Source: Elsinoe ampelina (lineage: Eukaryota). Taken from it: a stretch of 64,000 bases of DNA. The first letter of the stretch is position 1; each line of letters begins with the position of its first letter. Positions 5,807 through 35,320 of this stretch are shown here, one piece after another. The translations under genes were made by a program, and so were the position numbers. The stretch spans positions 1,195,147-1,259,146 of the forward strand of contig ML992505.1 of assembly GCA_010093995.1 (NCBI GenBank), given 5' to 3'. The notes below the pieces were generated by a model, which was not told the DNA's origin, searched no databases, and was given only the letters and a program-made list of their open reading frames with translations.

Positions 5807-8800
5807 GGCAGGACGAGAGGGGAAGGGCGGGAGGTGGTGATGTTGAGGGTGGATGTGTCACGGAGTTTTGGATTAACGTGATGGATTGTATGTGATTGCT
5901 CTTCGGTTATGGCGTTCGGAGGCGGAAATCTGTTGTGGAATCATGGGTCACTGGACACGAGTTAATGCAACGCGTTACGATACGTTCCTTGAAGTGCAGA
6001 TGTATGTTTTGCTACTGACAGCGCCTGGCACGTACCATTGATCACTGCCATGATGTCTATTACACTATGCTCGCCACGCATGGATATTTGTGACACGCCT
6101 TTGACCCAACAAAACAAGCAGGAAGACCAGACCAATGTACAAATTCAATCACCTGCTAATCAAATAATAATCACCTCTGGTAGTTTGATATCCCGAAGTC
6201 CAATATCACTTGACCAGTATCATGTACGTTTTGCTTCAATCCTGCATGCTCATTCAACGGTATGCCTTCCACTATTCACTACGCCAACCCAGCAGTGGAA
6301 ATGATCCCATGCAGTACTTGGGGTTGTCCCTGTCCTGGTATCGAGGTATTCGTCCCTCAATGTCCCGAACATTTCCCAGTGTGCTACAGAATCTTACTCT
6401 CTGAGGACAATGGGCTGGATGGATCTCGGATGTCTGCTTTGTGTGGTGTTCCAATATCAGACTCTGGTTGCGTCTCGGCGGAGCAGAAGGTCGCTACTGC
6501 AGTGGGGTTCTAAAGGTCTACGTGCTCTGCTGGTTCACCATGGCGTCCTATGATGGTCTGTTCAGATATGCTGAGTTGAGTCGGGTATTCGATTGATCAG
6601 AAAGATCTGGCTCAACCATCGGTCCTTGTAGCGTTAGATAGATGATGGATCAAGTAGTTGATGGTGTTTCGTGCTGCTTGGGCACAACTGATGGCGCGAC
6701 CTGTGTCTATGTTGCTGTCAGAGCTGACGGTCGCTGCCGCGTGATTCCTGCTAAACGCTTGAGGTATGCCAACCACGTGCTCATCTAAGATTGTTGATAC
6801 CAACGCTGAGAGGCCCCCGTGCTGGTTCATGCCCGTTTACCTTGCTGCTGTAGCTCATGCCTTTTACCTATTGCTGTAACAGTCTCGTTGCCGGGGAGTC
6901 GTCAGCGCGCAGAATCCTGTCATCATCACATGATGAATGCATAGCTTGCATCTGGAAGACACTTTGTGACAGATGCAACTTCTGTGTAGCAAGTCAACAC
7001 AAACATCACAGGTGATGCTGCATGGCGTTGAGGATGGAGGGTTGCCCAGAGGTTGGAGCTTGGTCCTCGGTTCATGCAGGCTGACGGATTTGCTCCTCCC
7101 GAAATCGGGCGGAACTTCTTCACTCCATCCATCAATTCGGTGTACAACCACAACTCGTGCACCGTGATCTTCAGCGGTTATGAGCGTCAATCAGAGAGCA
7201 TTCTGATCTCACCAATACGTTGAGGATGCTATGCAAGATGTCGCTCGACCTGAGCTCACAAAGGATGGCCTCCGGTGACGCGCATCGCCTCTCCTCGACC
7301 ACATCGCAAAGCTCTACAATGACGGCCATTGCGATAGCGACACTGCCGTGCAGCTCGAGTAGAGTAGTCGAGGATGATTAAAAACTCGAAACTTGGGGAG
7401 GATGGCGAAGAACACCTCGCGGAGGGCATTGCAGCTCCGCCCGAGTGAGCGACAACAGGACAGATAGGCGTTGCGCACCCACCCAAGCGACCGCAAGATT
7501 GTGTTCAAGCACAGCTCATATACAACAGTATATCGTAGATGAGATCGGATAGTCAGAGTCCGCCCAGCTTGACCGACGACGACAACGTGTGCGACATGCA
7601 TCAGACGCCGGACCACTCGTGGCAATCCGAGGTTCTGATGACAGCGTTGAGAGCCGCCGAGGTACCGGAGAGGACAGCCTTAAGAGCCGGGAAAAGTGAC
7701 ATGAATACATCACCGGATCAGTATACCACATCAAGTCGCCATTGCCCGGGCTGTCCATGCGGGCACGACAGCCACAGCCTGCAAGCAGCAGTGTGTCCGA
7801 AGGCGTTGACGCCCACCGCAAGCATATACAATGGTTGCCTCACAGCCTGAGTATGGCAAATCGTACAATCCGCAGGAGCAACATCAACGCCTCGTTGAAG
7901 AATGTTGCTTTGTGGACATGAACTCCTGAGTCAGGCTCGCCCAGGACCTGGGCGTGGGCCTGGCTCAGGGGACTAGGAGCTGGACCTTGAGCTGGAGCTG
8001 GAGCTGGACCTGGTCTTGGACTGGATCTGGACCAGAAAAGAACTTGGAGTTCTGATGCCACGTTCCCGTATCAAGCATCGGTCCTGATTGGACCTCCTGC
8101 ACCAGTCATACCCTTGTCGGGCATTGACTTGGCTTGACTGAGCGAGCCACGCAGACTCGCATAGAGCCTTTAGACTCGGGAGTTACTCCTGCCATGTCCA
8201 CCGAGAAATCAAAGTGACAAGCGAGAAGAACAAAATGTGGATTAACGCATCACATGGAAATGAATCTTCAGAGATGTGCCAGGAAGCTTGTGGCAAATGG
8301 CCTGGGAAACAAACAGTCGACTGACTTACATCTGATCCATAATGCCACGTCAGCCAGGTTCCAGCGCTGTTGTCCGTCTTTGTCGCTGTGGACACGATCG
8401 GCCATGGTGTAACTCATCGATAAGGTCGAATCTCTCCTTTCATGCCTGCTCATCTTCCTCGGCATGAAGAGTACTGCCGATAATCTTCGGCTGTTGGACT
8501 GTGTGGTATCTCGAGTTCGCGGGACATGTTCACCAGTACTGCTCGATAGCGATGGTAGCGAGAGGGAGTCAACGATCCAGACGCGGTCTTTGACAACTTG
8601 CCCGACCACTTCTACATGGACATAAAGCCATCCAGTCTTCCGGCCCTGTCTGTATCATGCCGATGGCGCTCTAGGTTGTGGATGGAGTGGGTCGTATTTT
8701 GCTTCCCTCGAGGAACGAAATTGTCTGCCATTGAGCCTTGCCATTTGGGCTCCAACCCTGCTCTTGATAGCCGACGCATAGTCGGCCGGAGGGATACTCC

Positions 8801-10159: not shown

Positions 10160-10303
10160 AAAGACCTCAAGAGGTTGGCAAAGCAAAAATTGTTGTAACC
10201 CAGCTACCAGGGCTGGTACGCCAGACGCATCCGCTGTGCAATGGATGTTCTAGCGGTTCCGAGGCATTCATGAGGCCTGGAACTACAAGTGGCGGCACAG
10301 TAT
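10160..10303 (-). ncRNA. U1 snRNA-like variant A (5' end AUACUGUGCC)
   Basis: Minus strand AUACUGUGCCGCCAC; helix H UUGUA/UACAA; SL1 GUUCCAGGC-CUCAUGAAU-GCCUCGGAAC; SL2 CAUCC-AUUGCACAGC-GGAUG (U1A-type loop); SL3 CCAGC/GCUGG; Sm site AAUUUUUG (10184-10191); 3' hairpin ACCUC-UU-GAGGU. 3' end approximate. Confidence 0.88.
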
Positions 10304-10382
10304 GAAGAAAGAAAGAGGAAGTTTGGGGGCGAAGCAGAGGTATATATACCCTCTCACACGCGGCTCTGCGGCGGCTCTGCGG
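10304..10382 (-). promoter_or_regulatory. Promoter of U1-like A: TATA box, pyrimidine initiator and GC element
   Basis: TATATATA at 10341-10348, CTTCCTCTTTCTTTCTTC abutting the start, tandem GCGGCTCTGCG(G) (+ strand) at 10360-10382. Confidence 0.7.
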
Positions 10383-10539
10383 CTCGCAGAATCCTGTTTC
10401 TCCGTTGCACGGGCGACGAGAGGGCCACACGTAGCGCCACACGTCAGCTCAAACCAGGAAATGACTCTTCTCCGAGGTCCGGCAGCAGCCAGAACAATCG
10501 ATGAAAATGTCTCCAAGGCAAGAATCATCGCAAGGATGG

Positions 10540-10699
10540 GACGCCCTGAAGAGAAGGGTAAAGCAAAAATTACGCACAACCCTGGCGTCCCTACTTACCT
10601 TACTTACCCTGGGGTGGGACGCACAGAGACACATGGGTCCGAAGATGCCATGCGGAAGCAGAGACTTCATGATCTCTCCACTCCTGTGCAAGAAAGTAT
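10540..10699 (-). ncRNA. U1 snRNA-like variant B (5' end AUACUUUCUU; tandem 5' splice sites in SL3 loop)
   Basis: Helix H GCACA/UGUGC; SL1 GGAGUGGAGA-GAUCAUGAAG-UCUCUGCUUCC (U1-70K-type loop); short SL2 with UUCG and no AUUGCAC; SL3 GCGUCCC...GGGACGC; Sm site AAUUUUUG (10564-10571) followed by CUUUACCC. 3' end approximate. Confidence 0.88.
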
Positions 10700-10763
10700 G
10701 AAGAAAGAGAGAGGAAGAGTGGTGTGTGGGAGAAATATATATCCCCTGCATGCGGCTCTGCGG
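10700..10763 (-). promoter_or_regulatory. Promoter of U1-like B
   Basis: ATATATATTT at about 10733-10742, CTTCCTCTCTCTTTCTTC initiator, GCGGCTCTGCGG (+ strand) at 10752-10763, shared with copy A. Confidence 0.68.
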
Positions 10764-11419
10764 GACCTCGGATCACGCAGCCGTTGATTCGGCGGCCAGA
10801 GTGGAAGATCATGGAATCAGAGAGCTGTTTTGGCTTTGCATTGCCAGCGCACTGTAAAGGATCAGGGCAATGTAGCCAAGGGCTGCCTTGTCTAACTCAG
10901 GCAGTAGCAAGCTCCGCGCGAGAGATGACCGCGTGCGAGGCTTCTGGCAGTGGTGGAGAGCCCTCGAGGTCACTGCCAAAGCGCTTGCCATCACTGCTGG
11001 AGGTGATTGGCGAGATCTCCTTGCTACGCAGCCGTGAAGGGCGCTCCTGTCGTCACCGTGATATTTGGATTGCCTTCTGGGATGACATTGAGAAACGCTC
11101 TGCCTTCTGGAACGAGATGCCCATGACCCCGAAAGCCACCGTGAATTTGGATTGCGTGGAAAGCCTCACATCTGCGAACCACAGTCTGCTGCTTCATGGC
11201 GAGGAAGGCCAGGCGCACAAAGCTTCATGGTGATATCCAAGGACTTGATCGCCTGACATGGACTTAATTGTGTGCAACTTCATGCAGAGTACAGGGCTCA
11301 GGTCAGAGATCATGCGAGGGCTTCAAGAATCACGTCGCACAAAGGTCAAGGTCAAGGACAGATGCGAAATCACACGAGAGCGCAAACATCATGAGTACTC
11401 CCCTCCGAGACAAGGCGAT

Positions 11420-11580
11420 GAAGCCCAGGATCGATGGGGGGTTCCAAAAATTATCCGGTGATCCTGTGCAAGCACAGTCCAAGCTTATCAGAACCAATGT
11501 GCAATGGCTCCAACTCACCTCGTACCAATGGCAGAACCATCAGCACAACCGGCGGGACCTGCTGGCTAGGCAAGTCGACT
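11420..11580 (-). ncRNA. U1 snRNA-like variant C (5' end AGUCGACUUGCCUAG)
   Basis: Helix H CCGGU/ACCGG; SL1 GUGCUGAUGG-UUCUG-CCAUUGGUAC (no 70K loop); SL2 GGAGCC-AUUGCACAUU-GGUUCU; SL3 CUGUGC-UU-GCACAG; Sm site AAUUUUUGG (about 11444-11452). TATAAAA (11619-11625) lies 45 nt upstream, as in copy A. Confidence 0.82.
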
Positions 11581-12221
11581 GAGAAAAGAAAGAGGGAAGA
11601 ACCTGGTGCGAAGAGTTCTTTTATACCTTCGTTCCCTCGGAGTTCGGTGCGTGTCGGCGCCGACATGGTTGGGAGCTTGTGAGGTCACCGCCGTGGTGAT
11701 GAGGTGGTTGGGGCAGAGACCAGCCACTTGTTCACAGCTGCCTTGGTTGGAAGCTTCCAAACAAGGCACAAATGGCGCTGGGTCAGCTCACCACCAGCGC
11801 GGAAGACCTCGTTGAAGGCCGTTGCTGTGAGGACGAGCGCCGATCAGCAAGCTACACCTTGGTTGAGACACTTCCAAACCGGTTCGCAGCGTACCAGGTG
11901 CACCGTGACCAAGCTGCGCCTCCCGTTGTCCTTGATGCCATTCCGTGCAGCTGCCGAAACATGCTCTGTGCACTTCCACCGCGTTCGAGGAAGCTCCATG
12001 ATGACGTGCCTGTATACCACCTGCGCTCGTACACGACCTGACGACCAGCGGACGTGAGGTATGGGATGGACCAACGGAGACTGTGGGCGCATGGCAGCAC
12101 GCGTGTCTTCGAGATGTTAGGCTGTGGAAGCGGATTCATCACAAGTCACAATGCTGGAGGGGAACAGGAGGCTCTTCTCCAAGGCACAGCTGTAAAGCCA
12201 TACAATGATGAAAACATCAAA

Positions 12222-12399
12222 CAGCGAGGCTGTGAAGAGGGTAAAGCAAAAATTCGGCGAGAGAACCTCGGAGAGATTCAGGCCCCGGAGTGCAATGGGA
12301 CCGGTCAAAGGGATTCATGAGCTCCAATGACCCACACCAGATGGTTTCGAAAAAGCATGTGCTGCTGCTGCTGTTGCATGGGCGGTACATACAATTTCT
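12222..12399 (-). ncRNA. U1 snRNA-like variant D (about 60-nt 5' extension with CAG repeat)
   Basis: Helix H UGGUG/CGCCG; SL1 GGUCAUUGGA-GCUCAUGAA-UCCCUUUGACC; SL2 GGUCCC-AUUGCACUCC-GGGGCC; SL3 GAAUCUC-UCC-GAGGUUC; Sm site AAUUUUUG (12247-12254) followed by CUUUACCC; TATAAAA at 12440-12446 and CTTCCTCTTTCTTTCTCC initiator. Confidence 0.85.
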
Positions 12400-26778: not shown

Positions 26779-29251
26779 TCACGCCTTCCTCCCCCTCTCC
26801 CCCTGTGCCTGCCCAGCCTCCCCCTTCACATCCGCCCTAACCACCACCCCCTCGCCCTTCTCCCTCTCCTCCTCTTCCCCCTCATGCTCCTCCCCACGAT
26901 ACGCAATCTCCTCTTCCTCCGTCACCCTAGCCCCTCTGGTCGAAATCTTGCCCCCTTCGCCTCCACTCATCTGCCACTCCATCAACTTCTTGAACGCCCC
27001 GTCCTCCTTGCCGCTCAACTCCCTGTACGTCCCCGTCTCGGCCACCCGCCCGTCCGCGCCGATGCAGATGATCATGTCGCTGCGCTTGATGGTGCTGAGG
27101 CGGTGGGCGATGGAGATGGTGGTGTTGTTCCCCGCGAGTAGCGTGCCGAGGGCTTGGTTGACGAGGGTTTCGGATTCGGCGTCGAGGGCCGAGGTGGCTT
27201 CGTCTAGGATGAGGATGTCCGGGTTTTTGAGCAGGGCGCGGGCGATGGCGATGCGTTGTTTTTGGCCGCCTGAGAGTTGGGTGCCGCGGGAGCCGACTTG
27301 GGTTTCGAGACCTTCAGGCTGGGCAAGGGGGGTTAGTGGGGGGTTAGAGGGAAGAGGGGAGGANNNNNNNNNNNNNNNNNNNNNNNNNTACGAAGTCGGA
27401 GATGAATTGGCAGTTGGCTTTGCGGGCGGCTTGTACGATTTCCGAGGTGGTGGCGTGAGGGCGGCCGTAGGCAATGTTCTCGGCGATGCTGCCGGAGAAG
27501 AGGACGGGTTCTTGTCCTACGAAACCGATCTTGCGGCGGAGTTGTTTGGCGTTGAAGGTGGAGATGTCGTTTCCATGAATCAGAATCTGGCCACTGGTTG
27601 GACTGTAGAAGCGCATGATGAGACTCGCGACAGTTGATTTGCCAGCTCCTGAAGGTGCGACAATGGCAACGTTTGAACCTTGTCTGATAGTGAAGTCCAG
27701 GTCCTTGAAGATCTCTACTGCAGGTCGAGTGGGATAGCTGAATGTTACTTTCCGAAACTCAATGTCTCCCCGGGCGCTCTTGACCATGACGCCCTTCGTT
27801 GGGCTGATCGTAGGCTCGCGGTCTTGCAACTCGAACAGCCGTGATGCGGCACCTACGCCCTTCATCAGCTCTGAGTAGAACCCAGACAGACCGAACAGCG
27901 AGCTACCAGCGTAGGCGGTGTACATCAAGAACGATGTCAGATCACCGACACTGATGGCTCCAGAATTGACCATTCCACCTCCAAACCATAACAGCGCCAG
28001 GAAAGTCATGTTGCCCATGAATCCCGATGAGCTGAAGAAGACAGCACTAATGACTGCTTCACGCTTGCCCAAGTTGAAAATCTGGCGAACTTGCTTGTTG
28101 TATCTGTTGACCTCTTGAATCTCGCCAGCAAAAGCCTGTGATGTCCTGACATTGCCCAGCCGCTCTTCCGCGATCTTGGTAAGACTTCCAAGCGCCTTCT
28201 GTATGCGACGCGAGAGCGTTCGGATTGCTCTACCATAGAAAAAAGCGCCAATAGCTACGGGCGGAAATAGTAAAGCGAGCACACCAGTGAGCTTTAGCGA
28301 AACGTATCCCATGAGAGTGAAGCCTGCTGCAGCAGAGACCAGAGACCTAAGCCCGTCTGAGACATTCTGGGTGATACTCTTGCCGACGATGATTGTGTCA
28401 GATCCCAGACGTGAGATCAAGTCACCGACACGGTTGGCATCGAAGAATTCGGCGTCTTGAACCATTGTTCTGCGAAAGAGCTGGGATCGGAGCCTCGTGA
28501 CAACACGCTCACCCACAATTCTCAAGACAATGATGCGTCCAAAGTTTGCGCATGCACCCACCGTCAGAAGACCTCCAAGTGCTAGGTAGAATGTACTGAG
28601 ATCCAGGCCGAACAAAGTTGCGGCCTCTCCGGCAGGCTTTGTAGCAATGTCCAAAATTTTGCCAATAGAGAAGGGTAATGACATGGAGATCGACGACGAT
28701 ATGAGAAGAAATGTGACTGCCAGTGCTAGTGGCTTTGCTTCAGGTCGGGCGATCTTGAGCAATCGTACAATCTCTCCCCAGCCTGCTCCTGTCTTTCCTG
28801 TCCCTGAGCCATCTTTGCTCAGCCTGGCAGAGAGATTGATTTGTGCTGCAGCAGACGCTTTCCCTGACTTCTTGAACCCTTGCGATTCATCCGTGTCGTC
28901 TTCATCCACCAAGGCGTTCTCCTTCTGCTCGTCTCGGTAGGAGCGCTCGACTCGTGCTGGCGCTTGTGCTTGTCTGTCGCTTGACTTGGAGCTGATCGAG
29001 CGGCGGCATTGCGTGGAGATGGTGGATAGAGGAGAATATTGTGTTCGGTACAGGCTATCCGGTTGTGGCAGTAATCTTAACCGTGCAGAGGCAAACGCCG
29101 ATGTGAAAGTTCTCTGGCTACGTATCGACGTATTGGACTGCTGCACTGCCGGAAGAGCTGGTAGTCGAGATATCGACGGGTATACCTGTGATTTACCTGC
29201 TACTGTAGCTCGCGAGATATTTTGGCTGAACGCCTGCGCAACATGGCGCAT
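26779..29251 (-). CDS. Mitochondrial half-size ABC transporter (Mdl1/Mdl2 type); intron partly in an N gap
   Basis: Presequence, TM domain, Walker [43 protein letters not shown]. Confidence 0.9.
27364..27388. other. Assembly gap (N run)
   Basis: 25 N inside the ABC transporter intron. Confidence 1.
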
Positions 29252-35310: not shown

Positions 35311-35320
35311 NNNNNNNNNN
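35311..35320. other. Assembly gap (N run)
   Basis: 10 N. Confidence 1.

Follow-up and report, generated by a model that had tools for sequence, protein, structure and literature searches.

The 5′ end of the canonical U1 RNA, AUACUUACCU (AUACUUACCUG), is complementary to the 5′ splice site. Fungi are usually taken to carry a single ordinary U1 gene. The HSURs of Herpesvirus saimiri and engineered U1 adaptors are Sm-class or U1-based RNAs that use base-pairing either for the capture of another RNA or for the delivery of U1 to a selected site. These are viral or synthetic, they pair via their 5′ regions and their target is not U1 itself.

The human variant U1 snRNAs (vU1) are imperfect U1 paralogues with promoters of their own, once taken for pseudogenes and made into snRNPs; the passages cited here also describe vU1 with altered 5′ ends (PMC3561869, PMC5159530, PMC10870369). 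U1 recognition motifs in mammalian long non-coding RNAs are described, in the part of the source that we cite, as recruiting the U1 snRNP without splicing (10.1101/310433). For spliced-leader (SL) RNAs, the relevant sections of one paper give known leaders of 24–46 nt, describe SL-finding software that expects an Sm motif 20–60 nt past the donor, and state that SL trans-splicing is absent from fungi (PMC7986045). Our search of one open-access literature library returned no report of variant U1 genes in fungi, and none of a U1-decoy snRNA or of a U1-derived snRNA in which the target site of the parent is mimicked.

Here we describe a locus that touches on each of these systems. It lies in a window of 64,000 nt, by which we mean the whole stretch of DNA that was analysed. 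The window is gene-dense, with long open frames and fungal-type domains, e.g. RTC4 and Atg6, and the nearest Atlas clusters to its Atg6 protein are mostly from Ascomycota. From these domains and neighbours the host lineage is probably ascomycete. The sequence is a draft assembly, with runs of N at 27364–27388 (25 bases) and 35311–35320 (10 bases).

Four U1-shaped genes, strongly diverged from one another, lie in tandem on the minus strand at 10164–12399; we call them A to D (Table 1). The surrounding stretch is free of genes, with short stop-to-stop frames only and no Pfam match above the cut-off. At Rfam gathering thresholds the whole window returns no match, and at permissive E-values it returns only sub-threshold U1 matches and one queA match. 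Against a gathering score of 69.5 bits for U1 (RF00003), gene B reaches 22.6 bits (10540–10699, E 0.012) and the other three 15–17 bits. The match to queA, a bacterial RNA (8439–8509, plus strand, 26.8 against 52.6 bits), we take as a chance hit in a eukaryotic window.

Although the RNA bodies of the four genes share just 18–60% identity over their full length, they are built to a common plan. A TATA box and an Sm site that does not vary are common to all, as is a 3′ flank that holds TTTTCATCGAT and GGAGAAGAG, exact copies of the first box being found behind A and B only. Each folds, unconstrained, into helix H with SL1–SL3, a free Sm site and SL4, the last of which C lacks. The loop UCAUGAA is found in SL1 of A, B and D, and the CAUUGCAC loop in SL2 of A, C and D, B being without it. 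A CT-rich motif next to the predicted start matches three times in the window, at A, B and D, where 0.07 matches are expected, and none of 100 shuffles reaches three. The canonical U1 5′ end is found in none of the four. The window holds no canonical U1 5′ end with fewer than two mismatches; B supplies a match with two, and the 5′ ends of A, C and D are more distant. The 5′ extension of D, about 60 nt (12350–12399, minus strand), carries a CAG run, CAACAGCAGCAGCAGCAC, and the word GUAUGUACC, and is predicted to form a hairpin of its own.

Table 1. Features of the U1-like cluster and of gene B, in window coordinates; lengths, parts and folds are predictions from the sequence.
Feature	Position	Strand	Basis or remark
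Paralogue A, 5′ AUACUGUGCC; SL1, SL2 (CAUUGCAC loop), short SL3, Sm site, SL4	10164–10303	−	Rfam sub-threshold match and fold
U1-like gene B; mature RNA predicted at about 159 nt, 5′ AUACUUUCUUG through SL4	10541–10699	−	Rfam match and fold
Paralogue C, unrelated 5′ region, CAUUGCAC loop, Sm site, without SL4	~11436–11580	−	Rfam sub-threshold match and fold
Paralogue D, long 5′ extension with CAG run, then SL1–SL3, Sm site, SL4	12216–12399	−	Rfam sub-threshold match and fold
TATA-like box ATATATAT upstream of B	10735–10742	−	Read from sequence; counterpart in A, C and D by alignment
CT-rich motif CTTCCTCTCTCTTTCTTC near the start, directly adjoining the first base of B	10700–10717	−	Motif scan
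B 5′ end AUACUUUCUUG	10689–10699	−	Two mismatches (positions 7 and 9) to the canonical U1 5′ end
B SL1, 10-bp stem, U1-70K-type loop GAUCAUGAAG at 10665–10674	10655–10684	−	cmscan alignment and fold
B SL2, C(UUCG)G tetraloop (UUCG 10640–10643) in place of the AUUGCAC loop	10630–10654	−	Fold
B SL3, enlarged: lower stem CUCUG/CAGGG, upper stem GCGUCCC/GGGACGC, 24-nt loop	10580–10628	−	Fold
Donor-like motif 1 in B, GGUAAGUA (RNA 92–99)	10601–10608	−	In predicted 11-nt terminal loop
Donor-like motif 2 in B, (A)GGUAAGUA (RNA 101–108)	10592–10599	−	Complements the canonical U1 5′ end perfectly over 9 nt
B helix H, 3′ strand UGUGC	10574–10578	−	Fold; pairs with GCACA at 10685–10689 and closes the four-way junction
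B Sm site AAUUUUUG	10564–10571	−	Invariant across the four paralogues
B SL4 (CCCU / UCUCUUC / AGGG)	10544–10558	−	Fold
Shared downstream box TTTTCATCGAT	10497–10507	−	About 35 nt past SL4 in B; directly after SL4 in A

Of the four genes, B has the 5′ end (AUACUUUCUUG) and the U1-70K-type loop (GAUCAUGAAG) that come closest to the canonical forms. The unconstrained fold of the 159-nt RNA is the U1 cloverleaf, at −52.3 kcal/mol, with nucleotides 1–10 predicted to be single-stranded (unpaired probability 0.69–1.0). Like canonical U1, B has the four-way junction closed by helix H, a U1-70K-type SL1 loop on a 10-bp stem (the consensus loop in the cmscan alignment being GAUCAaGAAG), a single-stranded Sm site AAUUUUUG, a 3′ hairpin and a start that reads AUACUU. 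It differs in an enlarged SL3 and in three defining features: the 5′ end has two mismatches to AUACUUACCU, the AUUGCAC loop in SL2 (the U1A site) has given way to a C(UUCG)G tetraloop, and the Rfam score is 22.6 rather than 69.5 bits. On these three features B is therefore not a canonical U1. We also considered whether B could be the main U1 of the organism and judge it unlikely, because its position 7 is a U that would face the invariant +2 U of donors.

A better home for B is beside the human variant U1 snRNAs. It is a U1-derived paralogue whose promoter and 3′ signals are intact (TATA box, CT-rich motif and 3′ flank), and any functional reading would have it transcribed, capped and bound by Sm proteins. 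The likeness has its limits: the host here is probably an ascomycete, the copies are far more diverged from one another, and B has a mimic of the 5′ splice site in SL3, a feature that the passages cited on human vU1 do not mention (PMC3561869, PMC5159530, PMC10870369).

The original prediction described an SL3 stem, GCGUCCC/GGGACGC, enclosing ACCCCAG and two tandem donor motifs about 20 nt before the Sm site. The letters of both strands agree with this description, the interval 10581–10625 contains all of these parts, and the distance from the second motif to the Sm site is 20 nt. On the plus strand the motifs read TACTTACCT (10592–10600) and TACTTACCC (10601–10609), and on the minus strand, which is the sense of the RNA, GGGUAAGUA-AGGUAAGUA. 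Around the apex the RNA runs GCGUCCC-ACCCCAG-GGUAAGUA-A-GGUAAGUA-GGGACGC, with a 24-nt loop (10592–10615) between the arms GCGUCCC (10616–10622) and GGGACGC (10585–10591), which on the plus strand read GGGACGC and GCGTCCC, respectively. The enlarged SL3 is found in B alone: it has 5 + 7 bp and a 24-nt apex, against 5–7 bp and loops of 3–7 nt in A, C and D. In the mature fold both motifs are largely open, with unpaired probabilities of 0.59–0.99 for the first and 0.38–0.98 for the second.

Words of this kind are more frequent in the window than expected. GGTAAGTA occurs three times on the two strands together, against 0.27 expected, with two of the three copies in the loop of B, and none of 100 dinucleotide shuffles of the window holds at least three copies. 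That said, the two 9-mers of the loop differ at one base and are probably the product of a single slippage duplication rather than independent matches, so we count them as one event plus a duplication. Tandem Repeats Finder gives no row for the array, which is too short for it. We also considered, and set aside, two other readings of these letters. The motifs as part of a protein-coding exon would have to fit a stretch with short frames only and no Pfam match above the cut-off. On the plus strand, 10591–10601 resembles a U1 5′ end, with no Sm site nearby on that strand and no TATA box seen upstream.

For pairing with U1, we used the textbook 11-mer as the canonical partner. The most stable duplex that B forms with this 5′ end has −12.2 kcal/mol, a value matched by 5 of 500 shuffles of B. 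After refolding, the net gain is −5.5 kcal/mol, and 4 of 200 shuffled 11-mers do as well. When B's own 5′ end takes the place of canonical U1, the duplex falls to −6.8 kcal/mol and the net gain to −1.1 kcal/mol. These chance levels are modest, as four RNAs were tested (at about 0.01 each) and the oddest case had been selected beforehand. Binding of U1 is not established as a theme of the family, since A and D have no site for the U1 5′ end and the one in C lies inside a stem. This word, AGGUGAGU (11513–11520, minus strand), sits in the 5′ strand of the SL2 stem and forms a duplex of −10.8 kcal/mol with the canonical U1 5′ end, as do or better 13 of 500 shuffles. The same word in C is followed 55 nt later by CUGAU...CACAG, which is probably coincidental.

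Comparison with a relative provides some evolutionary context. The DNA run X9 comes from a relative that is about 90% identical, and it covers the whole cluster. Seven differences are listed for it inside paralogue A (10251–10297), and on A's fold all of them preserve structure. They comprise two compensatory double changes (G-C in place of C29-G39 in SL1 and of U7-A14 in a small 5′ hairpin), two A-to-G changes after which the bases still pair as G.U, and one change that gives a previously bulged C a partner. The change at U7-A14 implies that a small hairpin in the 5′ region of A is conserved. Together the changes suggest that the U1-like family is functional and under selection on RNA structure, and hence not a set of dead pseudogenes. 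The relative itself also appears to have several paralogues, possibly more than four: the X9 contig depth over the shared 3′ flank (10464–10557) is 423, about four times the single-copy level of roughly 100.

Over B, the signal from the relative is thinner. Its depth in the two bins that cover the gene is 87.6 and 91.3, and a loose end and a joint indicate that a B-like SL4, altered in the loop only, and B's 3′ trailer are present there. Among the X9 pieces listed, none of which is shown over B, no difference falls within 10511–10788, and the flanks differ at about 4–13%; this is a weak hint of conservation that may merely reflect short pieces. An independent sample of the same organism (X3) contains all sampled words of the cluster, and run X4 gives identical low-depth pieces, none of them over B. 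The runs X10 and X11, whose status as RNA is a guess, give one exact contig each. The first (10415–10662) is colinear through the loop of B and 125 nt past SL4, and the second (11656–11820) lies outside all four genes; these contigs show neither expression nor splicing. A metagenome search with a U1-like pattern (SL1 loop, gap of 75–105 nt, Sm site) found 41 loci, none of which was U1-like.

The reading of gene B that we favour, tentatively and at somewhat less than an even chance of its being right, is that B is a lineage-specific variant U1-type snRNP whose SL3 apex pairs with the 5′ end of canonical U1 and so holds or titrates U1. The starting points are matters of observation, namely the sequence of B, its fold, its family and its pairing energies. 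From there, the proposed history would run as follows. The gene would have retained the promoter elements of an snRNA gene, a U1-70K-type loop on SL1, the four-way junction, the Sm site and SL4, and would have lost the canonical 5′ end, now AUACUUUCUUG, and the U1A-type SL2 loop. SL3 would have grown, and its apical loop would have acquired a consensus 5′ splice site of 9 nt and doubled it by a single tandem duplication. This loop would most likely act by Watson-Crick pairing to a U1-type RNA whose 5′ end is free, best with canonical U1 in trans and much more weakly with the 5′ end of B itself. In this way B would hold or titrate the U1 snRNP, either as a U1.B di-snRNP or as a decoy. The scheme supposes that B is expressed, that a canonical U1 is encoded elsewhere in the genome, that the two RNAs do pair and that their pairing matters in the cell. 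Two U1 snRNPs could hardly sit on the adjacent 9-mers at once.

A role as decoy or tether for U1, as first suggested for B, is thus physically plausible, with motifs predicted to be mostly unpaired and favourable calculated duplex and net energies. A second suggestion, that B bridges U1 to non-canonical donors, has a logical weakness: once the loop of B holds the U1 5′ end, that end is no longer free to read a pre-mRNA.

If B does bind U1, the nearest parallels differ from it in instructive ways. With the mammalian long non-coding RNAs it would share the use of a short word resembling a 5′ splice site, in a non-coding RNA, as a landing site for U1; there the carriers are long Pol II transcripts and the outcome reported in the part of the source cited is chromatin retention, whereas B is a U1-derived Sm-class snRNA (10.1101/310433). 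Compared with HSURs and U1 adaptors, B would pair through its SL3 loop rather than its 5′ region, with U1 as the target.

The most serious challenge to a U1-binding role is that the loop has no role. B could be a redundant or decaying U1 paralogue, whether functional or not, with an unconstrained SL3 apex in which a GGUA-containing loop drifted to GGUAAGUA and replication slippage doubled it. No part of U1 is under less constraint than the SL3 loops, which counts against a functional loop in B, and across all four paralogues both the size of SL3 and its loop sequence vary. The SL3 loop of A, CCUGGUA, already has GGUA at the homologous place. A difference of one base between the 9-mers is what a young duplication would leave, about one shuffle in 100 gives an equally good U1 duplex, and neither the canonical 5′ end nor the U1A-type loop survives in B. 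A decaying gene sits poorly, however, with an intact promoter, Sm site, U1-70K-type loop and set of helices, and the lack of X9 differences over B among the pieces listed is a weak hint in the same direction. Drift would also have had to produce a perfect 9-nt complement to B's own ancestral RNA, and to place it in the single-stranded apex of the sole enlarged SL3. We consider such a neutral by-product a real possibility, if on balance a doubtful one.

It is also conceivable, if quite improbable, that the loop pairs with the 5′ end of B itself, within one molecule or between two, and hides that end until the trailer is trimmed or a helicase opens it. This reading draws on the fold of a slightly longer RNA. 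With five extra bases at the 3′ end (164 nt), the minimum-energy fold changes (−58.7 kcal/mol, z −2.8): GGGACGCC quits SL3 for the trailer GGCGUCCC, nucleotides 2–11 pair with the donor motifs, and the unpaired probability of the 5′ end drops to 0.01–0.28. GCGUCCC is present twice in B, in the 5′ arm of SL3 (within 10585–10622) and in the 3′ trailer (within 10536–10548), so that GGGACGCC can pair with either copy, and the precursor and the trimmed RNA are predicted to fold differently. Such a switch depends on where the RNA ends, and the 3′ end of B is itself a prediction. The fit is poor as well: B's own 5′ end meets the loop with one U.U and one G.U, its duplex is weaker (−6.8 against −12.2 kcal/mol), its net gain is −1.1 kcal/mol, and opening the 5′ end by force costs just 2.7 kcal/mol.

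Use of the donor in cis is less likely still. In that case an mRNA-type intron, or a spliceosomal cleavage within the snRNA gene, would run from GUAAGU (10607 or 10598) to the CAG at 10546–10548. The resulting length of 62 or 53 nt is typical of fungal introns, and a perfect donor is indeed followed, 53–62 nt on, by a pyrimidine run and YAG, UCUCUUCAG, whose CAG is at RNA positions 152–154. The original prediction had held that neither a branch point nor a 3′ splice site follows the donors; this is right for the branch point, as CURAY is absent before the CAG and the sole candidates are GCUUUAC and GCGUAAU, and wrong for the acceptor. The same CAG forms the 3′ strand of SL4, so that excision would take the Sm site and half of SL4, elements that are invariant or conserved among the paralogues. 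B did not turn up in a search of the window for intron patterns, the contigs contain no joint of this kind (contigs cannot rule one out), and our search of the one open-access library found no report of mRNA-type introns in fungal snRNA genes.

Very unlikely, too, is a reading in which proteins rather than RNA recognize the loop. Words of the form GUA(A/G) are bound by Nrd1/Seb1-type termination and surveillance factors, and GUAAGUAAGGUAAGUAG could serve as a cluster of them that governs the 3′ processing or turnover of B. Four such words fall within 17 nt, and UCUU and CUUG words are found at the 5′ end of B and in the SL4 loop. A 9-nt match to the donor consensus is more than 4-nt sites need, though, and the cluster is part of the mature RNA instead of following it.

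Finally, B had been proposed as an SL-RNA-like donor. Like SL RNAs (which are capped), B would be a small RNA with a cap-proximal exon and a GU donor, followed by an Sm site between hairpins; its donors are at RNA positions 93 and 102, and the Sm motif is 36 or 27 nt downstream, within the range that the SL-finding software expects (PMC7986045). That B gives its first 92–101 nt to mRNAs is nevertheless extremely improbable, as such a leader is too long beside the known ones of 24–46 nt, the host looks ascomycete and SL trans-splicing is stated in the sections cited to be absent from fungi (PMC7986045), B retains the U1-70K-type loop and the U1 junction, and the Rfam SL families have no match in the window at E values up to 10. 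The contigs of the four runs, which rare chimeras could escape, have no reported joint to other sequence.

The original interpretation is thus partly supported, being plausible where it takes B for a U1 binder and not where it takes it for a spliced leader. Even if the loop of B is neutral, the cluster is worth annotating, with its four U1-like genes of conserved structure and their reprogrammed 5′ ends, because standard Rfam thresholds miss all four of them. A bolder extension, which we think unlikely as it stands, is that the duplicated U1 genes of this lineage became re-targeted Sm-class snRNPs, among which B, with its tandem mimic of the 5′ splice site, would be a natural anti-U1 snRNP, or a partner in a U1.vU1 di-snRNP, and would determine how much U1 is free. 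Should B prove to bind U1, the availability of U1 would have a natural regulator that acts in trans and is itself made from U1, and B would offer a simple system, in a genetically tractable type of organism, for asking what variant U1 snRNAs do.
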